Shown here in pieces: positions 1 to 14,046 of a stretch of DNA of 45,384 nucleotides; position 1 is the stretch's first letter, and each line of letters begins with the position of its first letter. The notes under the pieces are model-generated. The model saw only the letters and a program-made list of their open reading frames with translations. It made no database searches and was not told the DNA's origin. The position numbers and the translations under genes are program-made. The DNA lies in the IMG/VR virus record IMGVR_UViG_2537561934_000012, positions 1-45,384 of that record; one strand, given 5' to 3'. This DNA comes from a virus (Duplodnaviria; Heunggongvirae; Uroviricota; Caudoviricetes).

Positions 1-1131
1 TCAAATGACCAGTTTTTTCCACTCCTTGCCGCGTGCATCGTTGTAAATATCGGTCATTTTTTGATTCGAATGACCCAGCAAAATTTTGGTATCAATTCCC
101 TGTTCTCTGAACAATCTTTCTGATAAAGATCTCTGCTCATGGAAAGAGGGTGGGGTGCCATTAGCACGCCAGTTGTAATCCACAGAATCCCGCGCTTTTT
201 TAAATGCAACAGTTAACGTTGCTGGCTTAACCATCCCGCCGCGCTTAGCTGTCCCTTTCGCGTGATGATGGTGCAATAGCCACGGACTAAGAACGCAATC
301 GCGACAGGATGACACCACATCATCCAGGGTGAGATTTAATTTATCGCAACGCAGAGCCAGAGGGATGGCAATCCGAGTTCCTGTTTTTTGCTGTTCGACA
401 TGAAGATAACCATCCCGGATATCCGAAAACTGCATTTTGCAAATATCTGAAAGGCGCTGGCCTGTCACCAGTGCCAGCAGCATGCCGCGCTGTAAAAAGT
501 AACCATCCTTTTCCGCTGCGTTATAAATCATCATCCACTCATCAAAAGTCAGTCGCTGTCTTGATATCCGCACCTGCGGTTTTTTTGCCGATTCTGCAGG
601 GTTAAAGCCTGGCGGGACATCGCCCGTTTGCTGAGCTTCCCGGAAAACATCGATCAGTACCTTCCTGAAAATTTGTCCCATTCTGTTATGTCCTCTGGCC
701 TTGTACTCTTCCAGCACCGATACCACATCTTTTACGGTGATGGCATCTAACGGTCTGGTGCCAAAACGTTCATCAAATACTCTGAGAGGGGCCGCTTTTT
801 GTTTCAGCGTGTTGAGTTTGATTTCTCCGTTTTCATATCTTTCCTGTTGAATTTTTCTGTAATTATTCAGAAAAATGGAAACAGTTGATGAACCGCCGGT
901 ATCATTAATAATTTTCTCCTGCAGACTGAGCATTTGTTCCATTTGCTGCCTGGCAAGACGGCTGTTCGCTTCTGCTGCAATAGTTTCTGCCAGTTTCTGG
1001 TCAATACTGCCGAGACCGTGATTTTTGCCTGTTATGGGATGCCTGTAACGCCAGTAAACTTTGTTATTTCTTTTGTCAAAATATGGAGACAATCCCGGAA
1101 CATCGGTTTTATATTTTCGCGGGCGCGCCAT
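1..1131 (-). CDS. int: Tyrosine-type site-specific integrase, lambda Int family
   Basis: 376-aa ORF with stop at window positions 1-3. C-terminal half reads like lambda Int (TGQRLSDI..., FHEQRSLSERL..., LLGHSNQKMTDIYNDARGKEWKKL), giving the R...HxxR...H...Y catalytic pattern. Sits at the prophage edge next to an excisionase-like gene. Confidence 0.88.
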   Translation of the reverse strand: MARPRKYKTDVPGLSPYFDKRNNKVYWRYRHPITGKNHGLGSIDQKLAETIAAEANSRLARQQMEQMLSLQEKIINDTGGSSTVSIFLNNYRKIQQERYENGEIKLNTLKQKAAPLRVFDERFGTRPLDAITVKDVVSVLEEYKARGHNRMGQIFRKVLIDVFREAQQTGDVPPGFNPAESAKKPQVRISRQRLTFDEWMMIYNAAEKDGYFLQRGMLLALVTGQRLSDICKMQFSDIRDGYLHVEQQKTGTRIAIPLALRCDKLNLTLDDVVSSCRDCVLSPWLLHHHHAKGTAKRGGMVKPATLTVAFKKARDSVDYNWRANGTPPSFHEQRSLSERLFREQGIDTKILLGHSNQKMTDIYNDARGKEWKKLVI

Positions 1132-1357
1132 CTTCCAGTATCCTCTTCAAAGCAGGGTGATCTGTGGCGATCACCTCCGGCTTGTTTACCATTCCGACAA
1201 AGCGAGCTCGCGGATCCACTCGCCAGTGTCTTCCAACTTTTTTGGGGAGAGGAAATATCATTCCGGCTTTAGCGTATTTACTTAACGTGCCTGGAGTAGG
1301 GACCGGATCGCTGAATTCCTCTTTTGCCCACTCAGTGAGCAGAATAAGTCTTGCCAT
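1109..1357 (-). CDS. xis: Excisionase-like DNA-binding protein
   Basis: 82-aa ORF immediately upstream of int and overlapping its start by 23 bp. Small basic protein in the lambda Xis position. Confidence 0.6.
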   Translation of the reverse strand: MARLILLTEWAKEEFSDPVPTPGTLSKYAKAGMIFPLPKKVGRHWRVDPRARFVGMVNKPEVIATDHPALKRILEDGAPAKI

Positions 1358-1421
1358 GAGCGTCGTTCGCTAATCATGGTCGCCGCCACTATAGCTGGTG
1401 GGCGACGACCGGGGTTGAACA

Positions 1422-3905
1422 TTAAAAATCAGCCTGACTCGGGATCAGTTTTTGTATCGTAGCTGTAACGTATTTTGCCTGGTGACGGGCGTCATCCAGC
1501 GCATTGTGGCGCACGCCTTCGAATGGAATAACGGTTCTGGCATCAAAGTCGATTGTTTTTCCCAGCTCAACGATTGTGCGTACATCGCGATCGTTGTAGT
1601 AGCGCCACGGGCAGGGGATGTCCAGGCGTTCGTATGAGGTGCGCAAAATTGCGTTATCGAAAGTTGCACCATTACCCCATACCTGAACTAATTTTTCATC
1701 TGAGTATTCGTTGATGAACTCCCGAAACCGCGAAAGGGCATCCTTCAGTTTTACCTGGTCTGTTAAAATGGCAGCTCTGGCTTCACTGGACTGCTTCAGC
1801 CACCATTCGATGGTTCCACCGTCAGGAACAGCCCCTGTATTCATTGCGTCAGTCAGACTGATAACGATATAAAATACTGGCCCGATTTCCCCTGTTTGTG
1901 GGTCGAAGAAAACCGCACCAATAACCACGATGGGCGCATTGGTGTTGGTTCCCATTGTTTCAAGGTCGATCATCAGGTGGTACCACACTCTGCTGGTGGA
2001 TGTGATAACGTGATGACCGTTCACCGCAATTAAGGGATCTGCCGTCTCGCCAGTTTCATTATCGCTGGCGTGGTCCTGAGCGCTGCCAGCATTCTCCTTT
2101 TGTGGATGTTCAGCGCCTTCCATTTCCTCCGGATCATTTTCCTGAACTTCAACCTGATTCTCTTCATCGAATGTTTCCTGGTATGTTGCGTCGCCCATCA
2201 CCGCACTACAATCAGGGCAGTTGCCGCCACCGATCTGACCGCAGGCTGTGCAGACTTTTTCCGCTTCCTGTTGCGCTACCGGTTCGGATTGTTTCGTTTC
2301 TGGCTCGTTTTGTAACGCATTTTGGCTGTTTTGTTCCGCTTTCTGGTTGTTCTGTTCCGTTTCTTGCTGGTTCTGGTTCACAGAATCGCGGGTTTCAATC
2401 CCCTTCACCCATTTCGGATCATTCGGGTCGCTAATCCCTGCAACAAATTCTCCGCGAGAGGCAGCAAGCAGTTCATTAGCGTCAGGCTGGCTGATATTGG
2501 CTGCCTGCATAATTTTGTTTACTTCGTCAGCGGTAACTTTTACCGGCTCTGGTTGTGCGGTCGTGTCAGATGCACCAGTATTTTGTTGTGAGCCTGAGTA
2601 TGTACCGTTTTTGCGGGCAAAATATTCTTCTTTCGTGATTTCAGTAGCCCCTGCAGCCAGCGCCTTATTCAGACCAGAAAGTTTGTTTGCACGACCATAT
2701 TTTTCGCCATCCTTATCGGTGAAAAGGAAGTAGAACGGCCCCTCACGCTCTACAGATGGTTCAGTTTCCAGCGTGCTTTCATTTTTTTGGGTATCAGATA
2801 CTTCAGTTTCCACTGCATCAGTTTGTGCTGCTGACGGCTGGAGAATATCAGCAGTGTTCTGGTCTGTTTCTTCATCCTCAAACACGCCCTTTGTCGCCAG
2901 GTATTCAGTGATGTATTTGTTCAGTGCTACGGGATCTTTGTGAATGTCGATCGGACGCTCACGGACAAGGCCAAAAATAGTCTGACGGTCGTAGCGAACG
3001 GCATCGGGTTGTTTGCGCATTGATGCGGAAATGCGCTTCCAGTCTTCGCGATCTTTGTCGATAACTTCATTTTTTGCCCAGCGATGGATGCTGCCGTCAA
3101 TGTTTCCGGCATCAATATCACCAGGCCAGAGATAGTAGGCCAGCTCCCTGTCCAGGGTTTTCCATGTCTGCTTGTATTCACGACGAATGGCGGCAGTGAC
3201 AGGAGGGATTTTTTCTGCTGGGTTTTCAGTGTCCTGCCGGTTAACTTTGGCGCGGGCGAGATCAACAACAGAAGTATATGCATCACCTTCTTTGCGCTCC
3301 TTTTCCTGGCGTTTTTTACGGTCGAGAAAATATGCCTGAACGTCGGGCCATTTGGCGGTTGGTTTTAAATCACGTCTGGCATCGTTGATGTATTCAATCT
3401 GACGTTCCGGATACATGGCGTTAATTTCTTTAGTCCGGATAATTGCCTCTGCGAGGTGTCCGTCAAAGGTCATCATGTCGTCATCGCCAAGAAGCCCGCT
3501 TGCGTTGATGACCATATCCACGGTGATGTTTTCATGTGTGCCAAACTTAACGAGGACAGCAGCCTGCTTGTCGTCAGATAACTGATTAAAGTTAACAATT
3601 TCTGTATTCGGCTCAGGTTCGACCGGGACAAAGGAAGCGGATTCCTCATCCCAGAGGTTTTCCTGCATATAATCAGTATCCCAGGAATCAAGGGCAGGGC
3701 GGGCCATGCCGGGTTTATCCTCGCAGACAAGAAATTTATAAGCGCAGTCCTGAGCTGCCGGATATTGTTCCAGGAATTGCCAGGTAAATTTGGCACGGGC
3801 GCGGCGTTCGTCGCCAGCTTCAATGGCAGTGGCAACAGCAACTGCACCTTCTTCCTTTATTGCCTGTTCGTCCGGAATGGCGGCGCAAATAAAGACTTTA
3901 CTCAT
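1422..3905 (-). CDS. RecE-like (exonuclease VIII family) protein with C-terminal DnaQ-like 3'-5' exonuclease domain
   Basis: 827-aa ORF. Central segment LLAASRGEFVAGISDPNDPKWVKGIETRD closely matches the remembered Rac RecE middle region. C-terminal about 190 aa (HLMIDLETMGT...GNGATFDNAIL...HNALDDARHQAKY) reads as a DEDDh-type exonuclease fold. Confidence 0.65.
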   Translation of the reverse strand: MSKVFICAAIPDEQAIKEEGAVAVATAIEAGDERRARAKFTWQFLEQYPAAQDCAYKFLVCEDKPGMARPALDSWDTDYMQENLWDEESASFVPVEPEPNTEIVNFNQLSDDKQAAVLVKFGTHENITVDMVINASGLLGDDDMMTFDGHLAEAIIRTKEINAMYPERQIEYINDARRDLKPTAKWPDVQAYFLDRKKRQEKERKEGDAYTSVVDLARAKVNRQDTENPAEKIPPVTAAIRREYKQTWKTLDRELAYYLWPGDIDAGNIDGSIHRWAKNEVIDKDREDWKRISASMRKQPDAVRYDRQTIFGLVRERPIDIHKDPVALNKYITEYLATKGVFEDEETDQNTADILQPSAAQTDAVETEVSDTQKNESTLETEPSVEREGPFYFLFTDKDGEKYGRANKLSGLNKALAAGATEITKEEYFARKNGTYSGSQQNTGASDTTAQPEPVKVTADEVNKIMQAANISQPDANELLAASRGEFVAGISDPNDPKWVKGIETRDSVNQNQQETEQNNQKAEQNSQNALQNEPETKQSEPVAQQEAEKVCTACGQIGGGNCPDCSAVMGDATYQETFDEENQVEVQENDPEEMEGAEHPQKENAGSAQDHASDNETGETADPLIAVNGHHVITSTSRVWYHLMIDLETMGTNTNAPIVVIGAVFFDPQTGEIGPVFYIVISLTDAMNTGAVPDGGTIEWWLKQSSEARAAILTDQVKLKDALSRFREFINEYSDEKLVQVWGNGATFDNAILRTSYERLDIPCPWRYYNDRDVRTIVELGKTIDFDARTVIPFEGVRHNALDDARHQAKYVTATIQKLIPSQADF

Positions 3906-3985
3906 TTTGTTTTAACCTCATTACAGATTTAAGGGTGAACAAATCCCTGCCATTGCTGGCATATAAAAATGAAACCGGATATTAA

Positions 3986-4189
3986 TTACGGTGCTGTATT
4001 AAATCCTGCCGGGATTTCGGTATTATCCATGCGAATAACTTTCTCGACCGGATAACAGTTACCAGGAATTTTCTGTTCTGCTGCGGCAGCCATACATTCT
4101 TTCATTGAACCATATATACCAGTAACCACATCAACAGGTTCGCCAGTATTGAGAAAAACAGTCAGAGTGAGGGCAACAGCAGTATTCAT
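3986..4189 (-). CDS. Hypothetical early-left-operon protein
   Basis: Likely start at internal ATG (MNTAVALTL...), which overlaps the stop of the upstream gene in an ATGA arrangement suggesting translational coupling. The ORF track extends it to 4243. Confidence 0.4.
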   Translation of the reverse strand: MNTAVALTLTVFLNTGEPVDVVTGIYGSMKECMAAAAEQKIPGNCYPVEKVIRMDNTEIPAGFNTAP

Positions 4190-4374
4190 TGCCAGTATCC
4201 TTTTTGCATCAGACGTAAACGGGCCAGCATTGAAACAATGCAAATTTGATTTAATAACTCCCGTTCGTGTTTTCTCTTATTAATGGCATCTTCAGTAAAT
4301 ACAGGGTTACTGATTCTGACTCCAATTTCAAAACAACCTTCAGACGTATTAACGTTTGGTAATAACGTTTCCAT
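4186..4374 (-). CDS. Hypothetical early-left-operon protein
   Basis: Likely start METLLPNV... preceded by a GAGGA Shine-Dalgarno on the minus strand. The ORF track extends it to 4470. Confidence 0.4.
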   Translation of the reverse strand: METLLPNVNTSEGCFEIGVRISNPVFTEDAINKRKHERELLNQICIVSMLARLRLMQKGYWQ

Positions 4375-4939
4375 TATCGCGTCCTCAACAATGAACTTTG
4401 TGATGCGGTGCCTGGTGCCTCCAGGTGACGTTAACCAGTTAACAATTAACGCCGGATACAGAGAACCCACCCATAAGAACCAATACGGAAGTCAACTGGC
4501 CTTTTTAACTGTTCCGCGTGCGCTGAGCCGCATTCACCGCATCACAAAATTCACTTTAAAAAAGGGCGGACATCAGCCAGCAATGAAAACTGATGCCGCC
4601 AAAAGGTAATCAACATGGGTTGTTGCAGCGGGGTTGTCACTCAGGCGTATGGTCAACCTGACAACCCGGTGTTATCTCGAGGAAAGGATAGCCTCGCCAT
4701 ACTTACCGCCGCGCCATTTCGCGGGTTGCCACAACCGGAAGCGCACGGTCGAATTAAATTTAACGACACCGTACAGTGAGACGAACTTCGCCGTGCGCTT
4801 TCGTGTTGTGCCCTGACTTTTCAGGGATATATCCTTTCAGTAAACTGTCAGTGCCGGATGCTCACCCGTGTCCGGCGCACGCACTCCACCTGACCCGTGG
4901 AGAACTCCTTAATTACCAACCATCAGGAGGGTGAAATTT

Positions 4940-5131
4940 ATGACACAAGAAGAAAAAGTAATGTTTCTTATGCGCCTGGCTGTGGAAACCTTTAACGCCC
5001 ATTGCCAGGTGTCCATTTCACCATCTCACGCCATTTCTCTTGCTACCGAGCAAATGGGGGAGATTGACGTCATTTACGATAAATTTGAAGCATTCCTGGA
5101 TAAGAAGCTTATGGCAGAGAAGCGTCAATAA
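4940..5131 (+). CDS. Hypothetical small protein (63 aa) on opposite strand to the early-left operon
   Basis: ATG at 4940 preceded by AGGAGG at 9-nt spacing (track start 4931 is an in-frame GTG). Convergent with and overlapping the 3' end of the 5109..5714 gene. Confidence 0.45.
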   Translation: MTQEEKVMFLMRLAVETFNAHCQVSISPSHAISLATEQMGEIDVIYDKFEAFLDKKLMAEKRQ

Positions 5132-5714
5132 TCCTCATTACCCATCGTAAATATACAGGAGTGGGCTTGACGTTGTGTTTTTCAAGCTCGCTCTTCATTA
5201 CTTCCTGCAACTTTGAGCTGATAATAAACAAATCAGGTTTATCGTTATTATTTTTATCAGCATCGTCTTTTTTTGTTTTCGACTCTTGTGGTGAATGTTC
5301 GAAAGTAACTTGCAGGGTATTATTTTTAGCGTCCGCAGAGCCTAAAGTATGTGCATATGGATGTGCTATTGTGCGCCCTCGCAGATTTGCATCATTTTCT
5401 AAATTCACTGAACGAAACAGGGCATCAACAAGGCTCTGTACAATGCAAAGGCAATCGAAGACTGTCGCTGTTTCTGTTTTGATTGATGAAAGAACATGGC
5501 CATTCAGGCAAACAGAAATTACCCGTTCATTAACATCGCTTTCCCGCTTTTGATTATCAGAACCATATAGCCCGGTAAACGCATCGCGCACATTACGAAC
5601 CATATTATCGATGGTTTCTTTTTTTGCGGATCCCGGTTTAATTTCCACCAGGCTATCGCTAAGTGTCGTTGCAGCAATTGTCTGGATTTCTTTTGGTAAA
5701 TCTTTAAATTCCAT
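5109..5714 (-). CDS. Hypothetical protein (201 aa), AT-rich accessory gene in early-left region
   Basis: Long ORF in visibly AT-rich DNA. No transmembrane segment or recognisable motif. C-terminal acidic/Lys/Asn-rich stretch. Confidence 0.5.
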   Translation of the reverse strand: MEFKDLPKEIQTIAATTLSDSLVEIKPGSAKKETIDNMVRNVRDAFTGLYGSDNQKRESDVNERVISVCLNGHVLSSIKTETATVFDCLCIVQSLVDALFRSVNLENDANLRGRTIAHPYAHTLGSADAKNNTLQVTFEHSPQESKTKKDDADKNNNDKPDLFIISSKLQEVMKSELEKHNVKPTPVYLRWVMRIIDASLP

Positions 5715-5736
5715 TATTAGCCTCGTTGGTCAGCTA

Positions 5737-5955
5737 TTAACGTGGGTATGTAACCATTCTGGCAATGCTTAATGCCGCTGCTTTTTCCAGCCTGGTGATA
5801 TCCTGCTCCAGAGCGGACAGATTTTCAGCCTGCTTAGCCCTGGCTTCATTGGCCCATTTCAGGTCCTGCGCTGCCATAATTTTCTGGCGCATCCACTCAT
5901 AAAGCTCATCATCGGTATAGTCTGGCGCGATGATGACGGGTTCTCGTTTCTGCAT
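5737..5955 (-). CDS. Hypothetical small protein (72 aa), coiled-coil-like
   Basis: ORF with GAGG Shine-Dalgarno upstream on the minus strand, in the early-left operon. Confidence 0.45.
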   Translation of the reverse strand: MQKREPVIIAPDYTDDELYEWMRQKIMAAQDLKWANEARAKQAENLSALEQDITRLEKAAALSIARMVTYPR

Positions 5956-5985
5956 ACTGAATTCCTCGCGGTGATGTTTCGCTTA

Positions 5986-6114
5986 TCAGCCGTTATATTT
6001 TGCCGAACTGGAAAGCGCCTGTTTAAACTCACTGAAGCTGAGAGCTTCTTCGCCTTCGGCAAGGCCTTCGAAGTATTCTTCGTAAGCCTTTTCCATGATT
6101 GCGTCGAAATCCAT
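5986..6114 (-). CDS. Hypothetical small protein (42 aa), below ORF-track threshold
   Basis: ATG preceded by a GGTGAG Shine-Dalgarno-like sequence on the minus strand. Tightly packed between the flanking genes. Acidic product MDFDAIMEKAYEEYFEGLAEGEEALSFSEFKQALSSSAKYNG. Confidence 0.3.
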   Translation of the reverse strand: MDFDAIMEKAYEEYFEGLAEGEEALSFSEFKQALSSSAKYNG

Positions 6115-6115
6115 A

Positions 6116-6271
6116 TCACTCACCTGAGTTTCTTTCCAGCCAGCGACGAGCGCCAGTTTCGGTTTTAAACGTTTTGCTTTTGGTATACGTCATCGCGGTG
6201 AATGTGCCGTCCTGGTTGGGAAACACGCCGTATACCAGAGATTCGTTGTTGCCAAGATCGATAGTATCCAT
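6116..6271 (-). CDS. Small early-left protein (51 aa), Rac YdaF-like
   Basis: Likely start MDTIDLGNNESL... with a GAGG Shine-Dalgarno upstream. Resembles the remembered 51-aa Rac YdaF. The track ORF extends to 6349. Confidence 0.45.
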   Translation of the reverse strand: MDTIDLGNNESLVYGVFPNQDGTFTAMTYTKSKTFKTETGARRWLERNSGE

Positions 6272-6439
6272 GCTGACCTCATTTCCCCTTAACGCCGGGG
6301 TAGCGGAACAAAAACCTGCTGCATAGTTAAAGTTGAACCCTGCCGTCATGTTCTTACGCCTCGGGCTGGCTACTTACCCCCTGACCACTGCCTGGTAACT
6401 CGAAGTATTGCCCTGCGTTCTGTGGGGTGGGGTGGGTTG

Positions 6440-6500
6440 GTATGCAATAAATCTAAAAGTATTTAGTTTTATAGTCAAGGGGAATCTAAATTAATTTAAA
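6440..6500 (-). promoter_or_regulatory. PL-like leftward promoter with OL-like operator half-sites
   Basis: On the minus strand: TTGACT (plus-strand 6473-6478), 17-nt spacer, TAGATT (plus-strand 6450-6455). Repeated AATCTAAA half-site motif also found in the OR region. Confidence 0.4.
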
Positions 6501-6524
6501 AAAAAGGTCGGTATAACCGACCTT
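6498..6524 (-). terminator. Rho-independent terminator downstream of the repressor gene
   Basis: On the minus strand: GGTCGG stem, 5-nt loop, CCGACC, followed by a run of 8 T. Confidence 0.55.
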
Positions 6525-6545
6525 AAGTTCAAGGACATGGCAGTG

Positions 6546-7193
6546 TTATAGGTTGAACTGTACACCTTTTGCTACGGCAACAATTTTACACTCTGGCGTA
6601 AGCAAGGATGATTGATAGCGCGGATTGAGAGGGCTTAAATACACAAGTTTTCCATCAATAACTAATTTTTTTATAGTCATAGACGGTTCATTTGTAAGTG
6701 GATCTGGAACTATTACAGCGACAATACTGCCATTTTTATAACTTTCTCCTGGTCTTAGGATCACAGTGGCACCAACCGGGATACTCGGCGACCCTGAGGG
6801 GTTATGCATAGTGTCATCAGGCATTGAAACGGCAAAATCACCTTCCACTACATCAAAGAATGTGGTGATCCTATCGACATTTCCCATTGTTTTCTCTCCT
6901 TCTAAGATTAGGAAAGAAATCGCGTCACCCCACGAAAAGTAGGGGATCTTGGTGCCTGGATTGCTCTGCACAAAAGATAGTTCAGGAGACGATACTCCAT
7001 ACAGGAGATAGGACTCAGTAGTTCCTAATGCTTGAGCTAACTTACTTAGAGCTTTGCTGCCGGGTTCGTTTAGATCTTTCTCCCAGTACCCTATAGTAAC
7101 CCCAGTCACGCCTGAAAGCTTACCCAGTTCTACTTGGGTGAGTCCCTTATCTTTTCTGAGTTTCTTAAGCCTGATGCCAAGGCTTTCCATCAT
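6546..7193 (-). CDS. cI: CI-type phage repressor (HTH plus LexA/S24-like autocleavage domain)
   Basis: 215 aa. N-terminal HTH (LKKLRKDKGLTQVELGKLSGVTGVTIGYWEKD) and C-terminal S24-peptidase-like region. Divergent from the cro-like gene across an operator region. Confidence 0.85.
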   Translation of the reverse strand: MMESLGIRLKKLRKDKGLTQVELGKLSGVTGVTIGYWEKDLNEPGSKALSKLAQALGTTESYLLYGVSSPELSFVQSNPGTKIPYFSWGDAISFLILEGEKTMGNVDRITTFFDVVEGDFAVSMPDDTMHNPSGSPSIPVGATVILRPGESYKNGSIVAVIVPDPLTNEPSMTIKKLVIDGKLVYLSPLNPRYQSSLLTPECKIVAVAKGVQFNL

Positions 7194-7289
7194 TTTCTCC
7201 CGCGAGTTGAATATAAATTATTTTAGATTGCATTGACCTAAAAAAAATTATCCTGTAATCTAAAAATACTTAGATTTTAGGAGAGTGAA
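7194..7289. promoter_or_regulatory. OR-like operator region with PR-like rightward promoter and presumptive PRM
   Basis: TTGACC (7233-7238), 17-nt spacer, TAATCT (7256-7261) upstream of cro. Three copies of the TTTTAGATT / AATCTAAAA half-site motif, including a palindrome CTAAAAATACTTAGATTTTAG. Confidence 0.5.
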
Positions 7290-7517
7290 ATGCGAGTTGA
7301 TGAACTTGTTCAGTTTTTTGGCTCTGTTCAGAGGGTCGCTGATTTTTATGGGATAACCCGCGAAGCTATTTACATGTGGCGTAAGCGCCCCGGTGAAATA
7401 GTTCCGAAAGGGAGAGCTGCGGAAGCTGCCGCATACTCCAAGGGAAAATTATCTTTGAACCCAGAGCTTTACAAAAAGAAGGATACCACTCAGAGCGAAA
7501 GGAAGAGTGATTCATGA
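7290..7517 (+). CDS. cro: Cro-like regulator (Rac YdaS-like HTH protein)
   Basis: 75 aa, divergent from cI, AGGAG Shine-Dalgarno upstream. Stop overlaps the next start (ATGA). Confidence 0.65.
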   Translation: MRVDELVQFFGSVQRVADFYGITREAIYMWRKRPGEIVPKGRAAEAAAYSKGKLSLNPELYKKKDTTQSERKSDS

Positions 7518-7939
7518 AAATCAAGCATGAACACATCCGCATGGCGATGAATGCCTGGGCGCATCCGGATGGTGAAAAAGTTCCGGCAGCTGAAATAACC
7601 CGGGCTTATTTTGAGCTGGGTATGACGTTCCCGGAACTGTATGACGACAGCCATCCGGAAGCCCTGGCTCGCAATACTCAGAAAATTTTCCGCTGGGTGG
7701 AGAAAGACACCCCTGATGCAGTTAAAAAAATTCAGGCGCTCTTACCAGCGATCGAAAAGGCAATGCCACCTCTGCTGGTGGCCCGAATGCGCAGCCACAG
7801 TTCAGCCTATTTTCGGGAGCTGGTGGAGACACGGGAGCGACTGGTGAGAGACGCTGATGATTTTGTCGCAGTGGCAATCGCCGGTTTCAATCAGATGAAC
7901 CGCGGTGGCCCGGCAGGAAATGCTGTGGCAGTGCATTGA
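7514..7939 (+). CDS. cII-position regulatory protein, Rac YdaT-like
   Basis: 141 aa, translationally coupled to cro, in the position of lambda cII. Resemblance to YdaT is from memory. Confidence 0.4.
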   Translation: MKIKHEHIRMAMNAWAHPDGEKVPAAEITRAYFELGMTFPELYDDSHPEALARNTQKIFRWVEKDTPDAVKKIQALLPAIEKAMPPLLVARMRSHSSAYFRELVETRERLVRDADDFVAVAIAGFNQMNRGGPAGNAVAVH

Positions 7940-8004
7940 CTGACAATAGCCATATCGAATCGCTTCCGGCAACTCGTGAGTAAAAAGATTCGGTATCAGA
8001 AGAG

Positions 8005-9081
8005 GTGAGTATGGCTAACGCCTGGCTCAGATTATGGCATGACATGCCAAATGACCCTAAGTGGCGAACAATTGCCAGGGTGTCAGGGCAGCCAATTGCA
8101 ACAGTGATGGCAGTGTATATCCACCTCCTGGTGAGCGCGTCACGAAATGTCACGCGAGGTCACATTGATGTCACGACAGAAGATTTGGCAAGTGCGCTCG
8201 ACGTGACAGAAGAGGTAATTGATTCAATTTTGCAGACGATGCAGGGGCGGGTACTTGACGGTGATTTAATCACTGGATGGGAAAAACGCCAGGTGCTGAA
8301 AGAGGACAACGGCAATATTTCGCAAACCGCAAAATCTCCTGCAGAGCGCAAGAGGGCGCAGCGAGAGAGGGAAAGAAAGCGGGAACAAAATGGCAATTGT
8401 CACGGCGCGTCACGAAATGTCACGCACATGTCACGACGAGTCACGACAGATAAAGATACAGATAAAGATACAGATCAAGAAGATCAAAACACTATGGTCC
8501 ATGGCGTAAAAAACGCCACGAACCAGGCAGGGGATGTTCAGACCGTCAATCCTGGTCAGCCAGCAGGCACGACACCGGAAGCCGATTCAGCGTATGCGCT
8601 GAAAGCCGATTCGGGCGCTGTGCAGCAGGTGATGACCGCAAGGCCGGAGCAATCACACCAACTGCAGCAGCCTGAAGCCGATTCCGCCATTCAGCGGGAA
8701 GCCGATCGGGTAGTCCCGGAAAACACCGGGCAGCCTGTGAGACGAGTGGATTATCCGGATGTGTTCGAACAGGTCTGGCGGGAATACCCGCTGCGTGCTG
8801 GGGCAAACCCGAAGAAATCCGCTTTCAGTGCCTGGAAGGCCAGATTACGCGAGGGGGTGTCACCAGAGGCCATGCTGGATGGCGTGAGGCGTTACGCAAG
8901 ATACCTTGCGGCTACCGGGAAAACGGGAACGGAATTTGTTCAGCGAGCGACGACGTTTTTTGGACCGGACCGGAATTTTGAAAACCCCTGGCTGCTCCCG
9001 GTAAGCGGCACGAACAACCAGCGTTGTGTGAATCATATTTCTGAACCGGATACCGAAATTCCACCGGGCTTCAGGGGGTAA
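8005..9081 (+). CDS. Replication initiator (O-like / replisome-organiser-type) with internal origin iterons
   Basis: 358 aa, in the lambda O position. Contains two clusters of four GTCACG repeats at roughly 10-bp spacing inside the ORF. Track start is GTG at 8005; ATG at 8011. Confidence 0.6.
   Translation: MSMANAWLRLWHDMPNDPKWRTIARVSGQPIATVMAVYIHLLVSASRNVTRGHIDVTTEDLASALDVTEEVIDSILQTMQGRVLDGDLITGWEKRQVLKEDNGNISQTAKSPAERKRAQRERERKREQNGNCHGASRNVTHMSRRVTTDKDTDKDTDQEDQNTMVHGVKNATNQAGDVQTVNPGQPAGTTPEADSAYALKADSGAVQQVMTARPEQSHQLQQPEADSAIQREADRVVPENTGQPVRRVDYPDVFEQVWREYPLRAGANPKKSAFSAWKARLREGVSPEAMLDGVRRYARYLAATGKTGTEFVQRATTFFGPDRNFENPWLLPVSGTNNQRCVNHISEPDTEIPPGFRG
8135..8186. repeat. Iteron cluster 1 (4 x GTCACR at about 10-bp phasing)
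   Basis: GTCACG at 8139, 8149, 8170 and GTCACA at 8159. The 21-bp stretch GCGCGTCACGAAATGTCACGC recurs exactly at about 8405. Confidence 0.55.
8405..8490. repeat. Iteron cluster 2 plus adjacent AT-rich GATAAAGATACA tandem repeat (putative origin)
   Basis: GTCACG at 8409, 8419, 8430, 8440, followed by GATAAAGATACA x2 and GATCAAGAAGATCAA. Confidence 0.55.
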
Positions 9082-9906: not shown

Positions 9907-10740
9907 GTGATGTTGATGTGTGATGCGACCGGTCTGTCGCAACGTCGTGCCTGCAGGCTTACAGGTTTATCCCTGTCGACCTGCCGCTATGAGGCTCACC
10001 GTCCGGCTGCTGATGCGCATTTATCAGGGCGCATCACTGAGCTGGCACTGGAGCGCAGGCGTTTTGGCTACCGTCGTATTTGGCAGTTGCTGCGCCGTGA
10101 AGGGCTTCATGTTAATCATAAGCGCGTGTACCGGCTTTATCACCTCAGTGGCCTGGGCGTAAAACGCAGAAGACGTCGTAAAGGGCTGGCAACAGAACGT
10201 CTGCCGCTGCTCCGTCCGGCGGCGCCCAATCTGACCTGGTCGATGGATTTCGTCATGGACGCACTTTCCACCGGTCGCAGGATCAAGTGTCTTACCTGCG
10301 TCGATGATTTCACAAAGGAATGCCTGACGGTCACTGTTGCCTTTGGGATTTCAGGCGTTCAGGTCACGCGTATTCTGGACAGCATTGCACTGTTTCGAGG
10401 CTATCCGGCGACGATAAGAACTGACCAGGGGCCGGAGTTCACTTGCCGTGCACTGGATCAATGGGCCTTTGAGCATGGTGTTGAGTTGCGCTTAATCCAG
10501 CCGGGCAAGCCAACGCAGAACGGATTTATTGAGAGCTTTAACGGACGATTTCGCGATGAATGTTTGAATGAGCACTGGTTCAGCGATATCGTTCATGCCA
10601 GGAAAATTATTAATGACTGGCGGCAGGATTATAACGAATGCCGCCCGCACTCCACGCTGAATTATCAGACACCGTCTGAATTTGCAGCGGGCTGGAGAAA
10701 GGGTCATTCTGAGAATGAAGATTCCGACGTTACTAACTGA
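9907..10740 (+). CDS. IS3-family transposase OrfB (DDE integrase core); expected to be made as an OrfAB -1 frameshift fusion
   Basis: DDE/rve-like core (...TDQGPEFTC...[32 protein letters not shown]...). Reading frame is -1 relative to OrfA. Confidence 0.85.
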
Positions 10741-10855: not shown

Positions 10856-11020
10856 ATGCGAAAAGGTCTGCTGATATACAAAATCTGGAATGAGAGTTTA
10901 ACTCGCGGTCCTGATTTTGTGATGTTGCGTTCCGGTGAATTTTCTAAATTACCAGTTCGGGTTTCATTTTGTCCGTTCTGTGGTGAAAGTCTGAAAACGT
11001 GGGAGAACAGAAATGAATGA
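10856..11020 (+). CDS. Hypothetical small protein (54 aa) with a CPFCG motif, below ORF-track threshold
   Basis: ATG ORF ending 8 bp into the next gene; product ...VSFCPFCGESLKTWENRNE. No clear Shine-Dalgarno. Confidence 0.2.
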   Translation: MRKGLLIYKIWNESLTRGPDFVMLRSGEFSKLPVRVSFCPFCGESLKTWENRNE

Positions 11021-11324
11021 AATTAAAGAAATACCAGTAGAACGTGATGAATATGGCTGCTGGGCACATCCTGAATATGAGAAATTCTGTGACGGTCGGG
11101 AATATATTTCAACGGAAGAGTTTAACGCCTGGATGGAGGAAAATAATCTTCAATACGTCCTCTGCTTCAGAGATGAAGGATGTGCTGACCTTGATGCGTG
11201 TGATGCTGATATTTCTGCATGGGAACCGGAACGACCAGAGGGCAATGGATGGTTTATTGGTTCAATACATGACACCGAAGATGGCCCGATTTGTGTATGG
11301 CTGAGAAATAAGGCCGAAGCATAA
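11013..11324 (+). CDS. Hypothetical acidic Cys-containing protein (103 aa)
   Basis: ORF downstream of the IS. Several Cys and His residues (CWAHPEYEKFCDG...CFRDEGCADLDAC). Confidence 0.45.
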   Translation: MNEIKEIPVERDEYGCWAHPEYEKFCDGREYISTEEFNAWMEENNLQYVLCFRDEGCADLDACDADISAWEPERPEGNGWFIGSIHDTEDGPICVWLRNKAEA

Positions 11325-11629
11325 AGGCTATAAACCGACTAACAACTAAATACTGAAGATTTAAATCAGAAACGATTTTTATTAAATCCTTAACCGGAGG
11401 GATTCTGCACCCTCAGAACATCAGGAGGCCGTCTGAAAGGGCGGAACAGATAATGCTTACGTTGAAAAATTTTATCGACATACCAACATGGTTAGCCGTC
11501 ATTGCTTTTGTTAAAATACACATCCACTTTTCTGTGCAATGTTTAACCACTGGTCATATCAAATGGCATTCATGCGAACCATGATATAGAATCATGGCTT
11601 GAGAGAGTCGATGAAAGCGCAACTATGGT

Positions 11630-12208
11630 ATGAGAGACATTGATGTAAGAAAGGCTGTGCATGCCAAGATTCTGAGAGATCATCATAAAGATCCTGACAC
11701 CCTAATCATTGATGAGTTTACGATGAATCTAGGGGCTAGCAGAGCTGATATAGCAGTGATCAATGGGCTTATACATGGTTATGAGTTGAAGAGCAAGAGT
11801 GATAACTTGCTCAGATTACCAGCGCAGGTGCAACATTACTCATCAGTGATGGATAAAGTAACTTTGGTTGTCTCTGATTGCCATCTTTATGATGCTTTAA
11901 GCATAGTTCCATCATGGTGGGGGATAAAGCAAGTTACGCAAGGTGCACGGCAAGGTATCCATTTAAAAACAATTCGAACTAGCAAGTTGAATCCACAAGT
12001 GGACAAACTTTCCTTAACAATGCTTCTTTGGAAAGATGAATTGCTTTCCCTATTAAGTGATGTAGGGGAGCTACAGAATTTGAAAAATAAACCTAAACGC
12101 GTCTTATGGTCAAAACTCGCCAATAGTATGGATGTTGGCGAGCTTCGTGAAGCTGTTCGAGTTAAACTTAAAGCCCGTAAAGAGTGGCGAGTTGCTCAAC
12201 AACCTTAG
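11630..12208 (+). CDS. PD-(D/E)xK-type predicted nuclease (192 aa), candidate defence component A
   Basis: Motif arrangement IIDEF ... RADIAVINGLIHGYELKSK (D, then E-x-K about 12 residues later) typical of restriction-endonuclease-fold proteins. AT-rich gene. Recalls the database family label sce7726 (from memory). Confidence 0.55.
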   Translation: MRDIDVRKAVHAKILRDHHKDPDTLIIDEFTMNLGASRADIAVINGLIHGYELKSKSDNLLRLPAQVQHYSSVMDKVTLVVSDCHLYDALSIVPSWWGIKQVTQGARQGIHLKTIRTSKLNPQVDKLSLTMLLWKDELLSLLSDVGELQNLKNKPKRVLWSKLANSMDVGELREAVRVKLKARKEWRVAQQP

Positions 12209-13265
12209 TTATGTGATGGTTTTGCCCAATCCTACGCCATACCTCTGGGCTACCAAATTTATAGTTACCAGAGGGATTGGCTTTGTAGGCTTGATACTCG
12301 TTTGCATAATATTCTATGTCTCTATCTCCCGCACAGAATGTAGGCCCTGAATATTCTCGATGAGCAAGAATATCCTCACTATGTTTACCATATTGTTCAT
12401 AACCAAAGCGATTAGCTACTCTTCCTCGAAATACCCAAAAGTCATTATCTCCAGAGTATCTGACGCTGGCAGATACGCTAGGGAATCGCGTCGAAAGCCT
12501 ATTAAAGTCGGGGTGCTGTACTCCATAATCACTATAAATCACATTTCTGGCAAGTTCTTTTCTATTCATTAAACTCTGCCATAAAATCCACTCGATTCGA
12601 GGTTGAGAATATAGACCAACAGAAATATCACTGAGATCTGTAGGAAATGAACCCCCAGAAAGAATCACTTTTCTGTATTCATTGAGGTGCGCCAGATTGT
12701 TTATCAATCCCATTGCCAAAGTATATAGTTCGCCGGAATTAAGTTTATCCTCGGTTAACTCATCTCTTAAGTCAATAATTATATCAATATTTGATAAAGG
12801 AATTCCCAGATGATTAATGTAATGCGTTATTAATTGTGGGTTAACCAGATCTAACGTGGTTAATCTCAAGCATATTTCATTCTGCATTAATTCATCAATC
12901 GCTCTTTTATAGTTAGATGGGCGAGTTGGTGAACTGACAGGAATAACTCTTATCCCCATATCTCTAACTTGATTAACCGCATTTATTATAGGGTAATGAT
13001 CTTCAGGAGAAATAAAATGCTCTTCAATTAATAATCCATCAATATAAACACCTTGCATATCTGAGCAAGATTTTGAGACTTTCTTTCCGAACTCTATAAG
13101 AGTCTCGTTATAACTCTTTAAGGCAATACCTGAATCAGGGTCAATTGGCACTGGTTCAATTTCGAGTAATGGCAAAATTTTTGATTTCTTTTCAATGGAT
13201 AGCTGCGATAAAGCTGATAACTCAGAACGTTTCGCTTTCAGAATAGGAATATATGAAATTGTCAT
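12168..13265 (-). CDS. Hypothetical protein (365 aa), candidate defence component B, convergent partner of the PD-(D/E)xK gene
   Basis: Long ORF in AT-rich DNA with an AAGG Shine-Dalgarno. Its 3' end overlaps the partner's 3' end by 41 bp on the opposite strand. Recalls the sce7725-type partner family (from memory). Confidence 0.55.
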   Translation of the reverse strand: MTISYIPILKAKRSELSALSQLSIEKKSKILPLLEIEPVPIDPDSGIALKSYNETLIEFGKKVSKSCSDMQGVYIDGLLIEEHFISPEDHYPIINAVNQVRDMGIRVIPVSSPTRPSNYKRAIDELMQNEICLRLTTLDLVNPQLITHYINHLGIPLSNIDIIIDLRDELTEDKLNSGELYTLAMGLINNLAHLNEYRKVILSGGSFPTDLSDISVGLYSQPRIEWILWQSLMNRKELARNVIYSDYGVQHPDFNRLSTRFPSVSASVRYSGDNDFWVFRGRVANRFGYEQYGKHSEDILAHREYSGPTFCAGDRDIEYYANEYQAYKANPSGNYKFGSPEVWRRIGQNHHITKVVEQLATLYGL

Positions 13266-13822
13266 GTTAATACCTTATACAGAATCAATTAACAATTAAT
13301 GGTTCTTCGGACATTGAAATTTATATCGCAAAAATTGGCAAACTCTCCTCGACTACTCACTTGTGGGTATCCTGGCGTAAAAGGAATGACTTGGCAATAC
13401 CCGGTGTGATCATAAGTCATTGAAAATGATCATTTTTATCAGTCTTTCTTCCATGATGAATGCTAATGCCATTTGATTTGTTGAGGTAAAAAGTGTTAAA
13501 AATCAAAACGATGTAATTGAAATGAACGTTCGGTAGCATTCACGCTTTAAATGTTTCTTTTGTGCTGATTGGATGAATTTTGGTCACTTATGATGAGAGA
13601 TGTTGCAGGAAAAGAAGTTGGCATTGATCTATTGGATAGTTAGAATTGCTGCGGGTGCTTGAGGCTATCTGCCTCAGGCATGAACACCAAAAGGCAGATA
13701 GAGAAAAGCCCCAGTTAACATTACGCGTCCTGCAAGACGCTTAACATTAATCTGAGGCCCAATCTATGTCTCACAAATGTAGGTTAGCCTCTTACGTGCC
13801 GAAAGGCAAGGAGAAGCAGGCT

Positions 13823-13978
13823 ATGAAGCAGCAAAAGGCGATGTTAATCGCCCTTATCGTCATCTGTTTAACCGTCATAGTGACGGCACTGGTAACGAGG
13901 AAAGACCTCTGCGAGGTACGAATCCGAACCGGCCAGACGGAGGTCGCTGTCTTCACAGCTTACGAACCTGAGGAGTAA
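13823..13978 (+). CDS. hokD: Hok/Gef-family type I toxin (51 aa), HokD/RelF-like
   Basis: Product MKQQKAMLIALIVICLTVIVTALVTRKDLCEVRIRTGQTEVAVFTAYEPEE matches the remembered HokD sequence. Single transmembrane helix. An in-frame upstream extension starts at 13766. Confidence 0.8.
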   Translation: MKQQKAMLIALIVICLTVIVTALVTRKDLCEVRIRTGQTEVAVFTAYEPEE

Positions 13979-14046
13979 GAGACCAGGCGAGGGAGAAATC
14001 CCTCGCCACCTCTTATGTGGCAGGCATCCTCAACGCACCCGCACGT

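Follow-up and report, generated by a model that had tools for sequence, protein, structure and literature searches.

What does a protein that resembles RecE do when its nuclease domain belongs to another family and no annealase gene stands beside it? The question is raised by a gene on the minus strand of the tailed-phage sequence IMGVR_UViG_2537561934_000012 (IMG/VR, Caudoviricetes), which was analysed at its full length of 45,384 nucleotides and is called the window below. A first-pass annotation had placed at positions 1422-3905 an 827 amino acid (aa) protein that it described as RecE-like, with a DEDDh 3'-5' exonuclease at the C-terminus. The open reading frame (ORF) listing of the window gives exactly these coordinates, with an ATG start and a GAGG Shine-Dalgarno sequence about 11 nt upstream. 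The protein is a chain of small folded domains and long acidic disordered linkers, with the DEDDh exonuclease as the last domain. The reading favoured here, in which belief and doubt weigh about equally, is that it would be a DNA 3'-5' exonuclease acting without a phage annealase on a RecE-type scaffold. The gene and its parts are as follows.

1422..3905, minus strand: the whole gene, 827 aa, an intact member of the YdfE / PHROG 2082 family (ORF, and end-to-end match to phrog_2082).
3288..3905, minus strand: type-B N-terminal module, aa 1-206, made up of an alpha/beta and then a helical domain; not PF06630.
2886..3176, minus strand: N2, a helical domain, aa 244-340 (AlphaFold2 predicted local distance difference test score, pLDDT, about 90; ratio of nonsynonymous to synonymous substitution rates, dN/dS, 0.13).
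2598..2741, minus strand: N3, a small beta-hairpin/helix domain, aa 389-436 (AlphaFold2 pLDDT 84-90, dN/dS 0.07).
2028..2483, minus strand: acidic Q/N-rich linker common to RecE, aa 475-626 (BLASTP to RecE, and composition).
2208..2252, minus strand: CxxC...CxxC zinc-knuckle motif, aa 552-566, CTACGQIGGGNCPDC (sequence reading and RecE alignments).
1461..1979, minus strand: DEDDh 3'-5' exonuclease domain of the Rv2179c-like/DexA family, aa 643-815 (PF16473, E = 1.4e-67).

The Pfam model of the Rv2179c-like 3'-5' exoribonucleases, PF16473, matches the last of these parts with 227.3 bits against a gathering cut-off of 27, and the match spans profile positions 2-175 of 177, i.e., a full-length domain. 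The model of the general DEDD family, PF00929 (RNase_T), matches the C-terminus weakly. When the domain is aligned with T4 DexA and six stand-alone homologues, the catalytic residues D647, E649, D750, H800, and D805 occupy invariant columns. The PF16473 match and the five catalytic residues together bear out the DEDDh exonuclease of the first-pass annotation. The polarity, which had been called unclear, is 3'-5' by homology, as T4 DexA, EcD, and Rv2179c are members of the same family.

The only sequence matches to the domain in the PDB are 8KEL and 8KEN (E = 1e-8), which are 227 aa chains named "Exodeoxyribonuclease" with the sequence of T4 DexA; the structure of Rv2179c gave no sequence-level PDB match at E <= 0.01. 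The catalytic domain is homologous to DexA, with 27-29% identity and identical DEDDh residues. However, DexA is a stand-alone enzyme, while the domain described here makes up the C-terminal quarter of 827 aa and is without the extra loops of DexA. The domain also matches the full-length model of the family founded by Rv2179c from Mycobacterium tuberculosis, but this protein too is a stand-alone enzyme, a bacterial exoribonuclease. Stand-alone homologues of about 185 aa are 44-50% identical to the domain, and up to 62% identical in enterobacterial genome loci.

DexA and the stand-alone Escherichia coli homologue EcD, which has a homologous DEDDh catalytic domain, have been reported to be 3'-5' DNA exonucleases (Kang et al. 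2025, PMC12153337). EcD ("HREX") cleaves T4 DNA containing 5-hydroxymethylcytosine (5hmC), and leaky expression is enough for it to protect cells from T4 (Kang et al. 2025, PMC12153337). W152 and D169 of DexA have been proposed to take part in 5hmC recognition, and loss of D90, with no tetramer formed, defines the EcD type (PMC12153337). W152 corresponds to Y770 in the window protein and D169 to T784, so that the recognition residues are not conserved, although the column of D169 lies in a gapped loop and is uncertain. D90 corresponds to D722, which means that the residue whose loss marks the EcD type has been retained. Since the equivalents of W152 and D169 are not conserved and that of D90 is kept, the protein falls outside the HREX subtype as published. 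The published EcD sequence was not picked out among the stand-alone homologues by residue numbering.

Some relatives deviate at the catalytic site. P0138 and P0155, two representatives of fusions between a RecE-type N-terminus and an Rv2179c domain, have DLKTMG instead of DLETMG, and F-A/N-N instead of F-D-N. The substitutions suggest that these may be catalytically dead variants in some lineages.

When it comes to RecE itself, BLASTP with the RecE of Rac-SA53 aligns aa 475-625 to RecE aa 471-614 with 73% identity over 151 columns, and a second, weak stretch is found at aa 263-336 (23% identity). The identity of the linker/zinc-knuckle segment to Rac RecE is 73-75%, and the motif RGEFVxGISDPNDPKW lies within it. 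Judged from its composition, this common segment is presumably an acidic, Q/N-rich, disordered linker. The alignment to the K-12 RecE stops at aa 626 of the window protein and aa 591 of RecE, where the minimal active RecE fragment (RecE588/606) starts. PF12684/DUF3799, the model of the PD-(D/E)xK nuclease of RecE, has no match in the window protein at E <= 0.1, and neither has PF06630 (Exonuc_VIII), which describes the RecE N-terminus; the control, Rac-SA53 RecE, matches both. The NCBIfam RecE equivalog NF007259 gives 267.5 bits where its cut-off is 1269, with the match limited to aa 247-627 and profile positions 271-603 of 877.

The description as RecE-like therefore holds for the linker and zinc knuckle of about 150 aa and for a weakly similar helical domain, while the N-terminal 240 aa are another module. 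That the middle of the protein should match Rac RecE almost exactly was an overstatement, since the identity is about 75% over about 150 aa and only 23% in the second stretch, aa 263-336. The proposed domain swap relative to RecE does stand, as the similarity ends exactly where the nuclease domain starts; when it was checked whether the C-terminus aligns to the canonical RecE nuclease, PF12684 recognized the control but not the window protein. Both proteins are large multi-domain early-left prophage proteins encoded between kil/dicB-type genes and xis-int, both have the nuclease at the extreme C-terminus, and both contain an acidic linker with CxxC...CxxC and a helical domain, weakly similar between the two, that in the window protein covers aa 263-336. 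They differ in that RecE has a PD-(D/E)xK nuclease (5'-3'), a PF06630 N-terminus, and recT directly downstream, while the window protein has a DEDDh nuclease (3'-5' by homology), a type-B module, and xis in the place of recT.

The first-pass annotation had named xis as the gene directly downstream, and an excisionase (PF07825) is indeed encoded at 1109-1357, followed by the integrase. Searches of the whole 45-kb window using tblastn with RecT, lambda Bet, lambda Exo, Gam, the RecE nuclease, and a Rad52-like candidate gave noise only. No annealase came up when the ORFs of the early-left and nin regions were scanned with Pfam and PHROG; the nin region contains an HNH/DUF968-type protein, RusA, and Q. 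The early-left ORFs are accordingly without an annealase by all three methods, and the lack of a recT-like partner extends from the window to every relative examined. The relatives comprise 22 fused genome loci, taken from a collection of one genome per species, and 78 viral contigs with full-length relatives. Using phmmer, no relative of RecT, Bet, or the Rad52-like seed was found within 6-7 kb of the DEDDh versions in any of the 22 genome loci or the 78 contigs.

In the 22 genome loci xis and int, or int alone, come after the exonuclease gene, except for one where the following gene could be assigned to neither and one where the contig ends. The same-strand upstream genes encode at most 163 aa, the exception being a 310 aa ORF in L012 that has no Pfam match, and the 78 viral contigs display the same pattern. 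Conserved neighbours in the fused loci are an HTH_3 repressor, YdaT, an Rrf2-like regulator, a replication protein, and an integrase. Of the 22 genome loci, 14 have a gene for a 124 aa Rrf2-family regulator in the same orientation upstream of the exonuclease gene (e.g., L014, 5182-5556); it is usually the nearest same-strand neighbour, taking the place that dicB and ydfD occupy in the window and in the E. coli relatives examined. In the isolated phage Tritos, the genome of which is complete, the order is int-xis-exo-ydfD-dicB-DicF, and no annealase is found among its 56 annotated features.

Among 1.8 billion cluster representatives, 11,821 relatives were found, and most of these are stand-alone exonucleases of about 180-195 aa. 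The fused ones show which parts have been combined. A RecE-type N-terminus (PF06630) is joined to an Rv2179c domain in P0124, P0125, P0134, P0135, P0138, P0144, P0146, P0155, and P0156, while the type-B N-terminus (phrog_5943) is joined to Rv2179c in the window protein and P0121, to a DUF3799 PD-(D/E)xK nuclease in P0139, and to a phrog_7838 domain in P0151, P0158, P0164, P0202, and P0254. As both nuclease types are found on both N-terminal scaffolds, which are unrelated to each other, the domain swap is not a one-off event. P0131 and P0148 have either N-terminal scaffold and the RecE-type linker, but instead of a nuclease a short conserved tail, "LTIAA.GLCANPA...".

The gene that follows changes with the C-terminal domain. 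For the PD-(D/E)xK versions recT is found directly downstream in all four loci, namely Rac-SA53, K-12, L088, and L089, the latter two being both of the complete type-B/PD-(D/E)xK viral loci. In the viral loci with a phrog_7838 version, about 80 in number, the next gene is always one for Sipho_Gp157 (PF05565, E = 1e-40), and in four of these loci a Gam homologue is encoded upstream. Example loci are found among L090-L170, as in L091, where the gene at 6001-6858 is followed by the next at 6864-7367. The P0151-type relatives thus have the N-terminal module, the N3 domain, and the lambdoid early-left position in common with the window protein, but their C-terminus is not a nuclease and the Gp157 gene comes next. 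Pfam Rad52_Rad22 matches the phrog_7838 domain below threshold in five of five sequences (best E = 0.003). A PDB profile search with the domain gave noise only, its AlphaFold2 model has a low-confidence pLDDT of 62, the names of GenBank homologues are inconsistent, and a scan of viral contigs with P0151 as a single protein gave no match. The sub-threshold matches hint that the domain may be a Rad52-like annealase fused to a RecE-family scaffold.

An AlphaFold2 model of the N-terminal region, built from a 15-sequence alignment, contains four confident domains: aa 1-100 (alpha/beta), 105-206 (helical), 245-340 (helical), and 390-435 (beta-hairpin with helices). The N-terminal 240 aa correspond to the phrog_5943 module, which is distinct from the PF06630 domain of RecE. 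N2 is also present in the RecE-type-N-terminus proteins P0134, P0135, P0138, and P0144, with 31-40% identity by BLAST, and N3, with the motif "GPFYF...GRANK...EEY.ARKNG", is kept in all type-B relatives.

Pairwise comparison with 80 relatives gave dN/dS values of 0.29, 0.13, 0.07, and 0.18 for the four folded parts, 0.18 being that of the exonuclease domain, and of 0.67 for the linker at aa 341-388. The zinc knuckle is present in all of 120 close homologues, and all four motifs that were checked (three catalytic ones and the zinc knuckle) are kept in 110 of them. Purifying selection in every folded domain together with the retention of the motifs indicates that the gene is functional rather than decaying. 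The synonymous divergence (dS) from the relatives varies five-fold along the gene, with values of 0.18 for the linker/zinc knuckle, 0.74 for the N-terminal module, and 1.04 for the exonuclease domain; such a spread points to a mosaic gene with recombination breakpoints inside 1422-3905.

The gene is an ordinary member of the catalogued and ubiquitous YdfE / PHROG 2082 family, and its sequence is already known. The phrog_2082 profile ("exonuclease") matches aa 1-827 over positions 1-823 of 823, with 1547 bits. In a megablast search, 3452 of 5426 complete E. coli genomes had a match covering at least 80% of the gene, and a matching genome had a median of two, and up to nine, related places. The proposal to look for the same fusion in related prophages is thereby answered, as the fusion is widespread. 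In the E. coli genomes the NCBI Prokaryotic Genome Annotation Pipeline (PGAP) names the product "exonuclease" or "3'-5' exonuclease", and an NCBI "exonuclease" entry from E. fergusonii has 95% identity to the window protein. A large protein collection contains 7975 matching clusters; the best 120 of these 7975 are 86-96% identical and include the names "exonuclease", "3'-5' exoribonuclease", and "exonuclease VIII". The ORF is intact and of full length in 78 of 80 viral contigs. Isolated phages with the gene include Evi, mEp460, Tritos, HannyBb, and PhiR42_1, and it is also found in the PPompW prophages of Stx2a strains. The ydfE gene of K-12 (b1577, in Qin) encodes a product with 69% identity over aa 1-257 and has the same operon position, but it is cut by the insertion sequence (IS) IS2E after about 256 codons and has lost everything from N2 onward, including the exonuclease. 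The window gene is the intact orthologue of this Qin pseudogene.

The following features surround the gene.

1..1131, minus strand: integrase, at the left prophage end (ORF; homologues match Arm-DNA-bind_1 and Phage_integrase).
1109..1357, minus strand: excisionase, directly downstream of the exonuclease gene (PF07825; same place in relatives).
3986..4189, minus strand: YdfD-like DUF1482 gene, directly upstream (PF07358; PGAP annotation of the 97.5%-identical locus L001).
4186..4374, minus strand: dicB, cell-division inhibitor (PF05358, E = 5e-38).
4564..4615, minus strand: DicF-like small RNA (Rfam RF00039, model positions 1-52, 39.4 bits, E = 5.5e-7).

Going upstream on the same strand, the order is ydfD-like gene, dicB, DicF, a gene for a 201 aa protein, ydfC-, ydfB-, and ydfA-like genes, and a CI-type repressor gene. 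This gene order matches that of the K-12 Qin dicBF operon, E. coli PSS-15, phage Tritos, and viral contigs. The exonuclease gene stands last in a dicBF-type early-left (pL-like) operon, before xis and int. Rfam gave no match over positions 1-9000 at gathering thresholds; the DicF-like RNA scores 39.4 while the gathering score is 48, so a default Rfam annotation would miss it. A promoter of its own in front of the exonuclease gene was considered and rejected, since promoter-like sites were no commoner than in shuffled sequence.

The 201 aa protein (5109-5714, minus strand, phrog_1363) has no Pfam or PADLOC match. Its gene lies between DicF and the ydfC-like gene, an interval that is entirely non-coding in K-12 Qin, and 36 of the 78 viral contigs encode homologues upstream of the exonuclease gene. 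A 66 aa ORF on the plus strand (4931-5131, phrog_2605) overlaps the 3' end of the 201 aa gene. Further away, in the early-right region, positions 11000-14000 form an island of low guanine-cytosine content (0.39-0.41, against about 0.5 in the flanks). It encodes a 365 aa protein (12168-13265, minus strand) matching PADLOC PD-Lambda-2_C with E = 1e-41 and a 192 aa protein (11630-12208, plus strand) matching PDLC02989 "cll" with E = 2e-28, and it is probably defence cargo. A 277 aa ORF at 9907-10740 (plus strand), located immediately behind the replication and Ren-like genes, matches the C-terminal part only of the transposase profile phrog_157 (E = 2e-75), and probably represents an IS fragment or insertion.

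How might an exonuclease of this kind work at the end of such an operon? Induction of the prophage would derepress the early-left operon, and the protein would then act as a Mg2+-dependent 3'-to-5' exonuclease on DNA 3' ends. Its RecE-type scaffold and linker would bring the catalytic domain to the DNA ends or partners that are addressed by RecE. Because no phage annealase is encoded alongside, it is not a two-component recombinase of the RecET or Red type. If it has a role in recombination, this would require 5'-tailed intermediates, host functions, or single-strand annealing that needs no annealase; for the last of these, E. coli XthA (in-vivo cloning) and the vaccinia DNA polymerase with its 3'-5' exonuclease are precedents. 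Removal of DNA 3' ends is predicted from the homology with DexA and EcD, and targeting by the scaffold from the fact that such scaffolds are common to proteins whose partners are recombination genes.

Several points weigh against this proposal. No informative fold match was obtained for the N-terminal domains, so the prediction that they target DNA ends depends solely on scaffolds that RecE has as well. RNA is a possible substrate, given that the Pfam family takes its name from an exoribonuclease. Resection in the 3'-5' direction destroys the 3' tails that are as a rule used by RecA and annealases, so a role in recombination is not obvious. The substitution of two catalytic motifs in P0138 and P0155 implies that catalysis is perhaps dispensable in some lineages. 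Outside the window, the absence of Erf and Sak4 rests on gene sizes, Pfam scans of neighbours, and deposited annotation, without dedicated seeds. Finally, a literature search found no experimental study of the fused protein. Papers on ydfE and dicB are silent on function, no literature on Rv2179c in prophages was found, and the Gifsy-1/RtcR paper concerns other genes (PMC9879122).

A possible but doubtful alternative is that the enzyme, like DexA, degrades host DNA for nucleotide scavenging after induction, or that it excludes superinfecting T-even phages by breaking down their modified DNA in the manner of HREX/EcD, and shields the lysogen. Exclusion would agree with the presence in the same operon of dicB, the product of which is reported to protect against some phages, and with the other defence-like cargo of the prophage, such as the PD-Lambda-2_C-like protein. 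The homology of the catalytic domain to T4 DexA speaks for either variant, and the reported cleavage of 5hmC-containing T4 DNA by EcD, and its protection against T4, for the second (PMC12153337). However, the residues for 5hmC recognition are not conserved (Y770, and T784 with the uncertainty given above), the D90 equivalent D722 is retained, and PADLOC gave no match for the exonuclease. The gene is moreover the last of an early operon under repressor control, promoter-like sites before it do not exceed background, and a RecE-type scaffold of about 640 aa would be left unexplained.

It is unlikely that the protein is the nuclease half of a two-component recombination system for which the annealase is provided in trans, either by the host (RecA with RecFOR) or by another prophage (e.g., the RecT of Rac). 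The genome position and scaffolds are the same as those of RecE, and the median of two and up to nine related places per E. coli genome make complementation in trans conceivable. A 3'-5' exonuclease would nevertheless yield 5' tails, which are not the classical substrate of a RecT-type annealase. No relative of RecT or Bet is linked in any of the 100 related loci examined, and complete, viable phages with the gene have no annotated annealase.

An exoribonuclease that trims or degrades RNA, such as the 3' ends of host or phage transcripts, or oligoribonucleotides, appears quite unlikely. PF16473 is named after the M. tuberculosis 3'-5' exoribonuclease Rv2179c, the window protein has a weak NCBIfam oligoribonuclease match, and many NCBI records are entitled "3'-5' exoribonuclease", but the database names have been carried over from that of the Pfam family. 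The operon does contain a DicF-like RNA, and its transcript is processed to give DicF. Against this, the characterised members DexA and EcD act on DNA, and the domain replaces a DNA nuclease on a scaffold that is otherwise seen with recombination proteins. It is very improbable, and largely refuted by the selection data, that the gene is what remains of a recombination module that has lost its function and is decaying: K-12 has only a truncated pseudogene, PHROGs includes fragment families, and two representatives have catalytic substitutions, but the folded domains have dN/dS values of 0.07-0.29, the ORF is intact and full length in 78 of 80 viral contigs, the gene order is maintained in the 22 fused loci from genomes of different species, and plaque-forming phages carry it.

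The annealase-independent DNA exonuclease favoured here might also be part of something broader, an idea that we regard as speculative and rather doubtful. The N-terminal regions of the RecE family would then be general platforms of lambdoid early-left operons for swappable C-terminal DNA-processing effectors: a PD-(D/E)xK nuclease with recT, possibly a Rad52-like domain with Gp157, and a DEDDh nuclease without a partner. The DEDDh version, present in about two thirds of the complete E. coli genomes, would run an undescribed annealase-independent pathway, either end joining or recombination via 5'-tailed intermediates, or exclusion of foreign DNA.

The gene is among the commonest prophage genes of E. 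coli. It is frequently mislabelled "exodeoxyribonuclease VIII", and this matters for annotation because the predicted polarity is the opposite and there is no annealase; the gene is not evidence for a RecET-type recombination system. The family also gives a handle on an old, minor puzzle, namely the purpose of the dispensable N-terminal 590 residues of RecE. Since the same scaffolds occur with alternative effectors, and the partner gene changes with the effector, the role of the RecE-type scaffold becomes testable. If it is true that the DEDDh version promotes annealase-independent recombination, or that it excludes phages with modified DNA, this would have a bearing on prophage mosaicism and on the immunity of lysogens.

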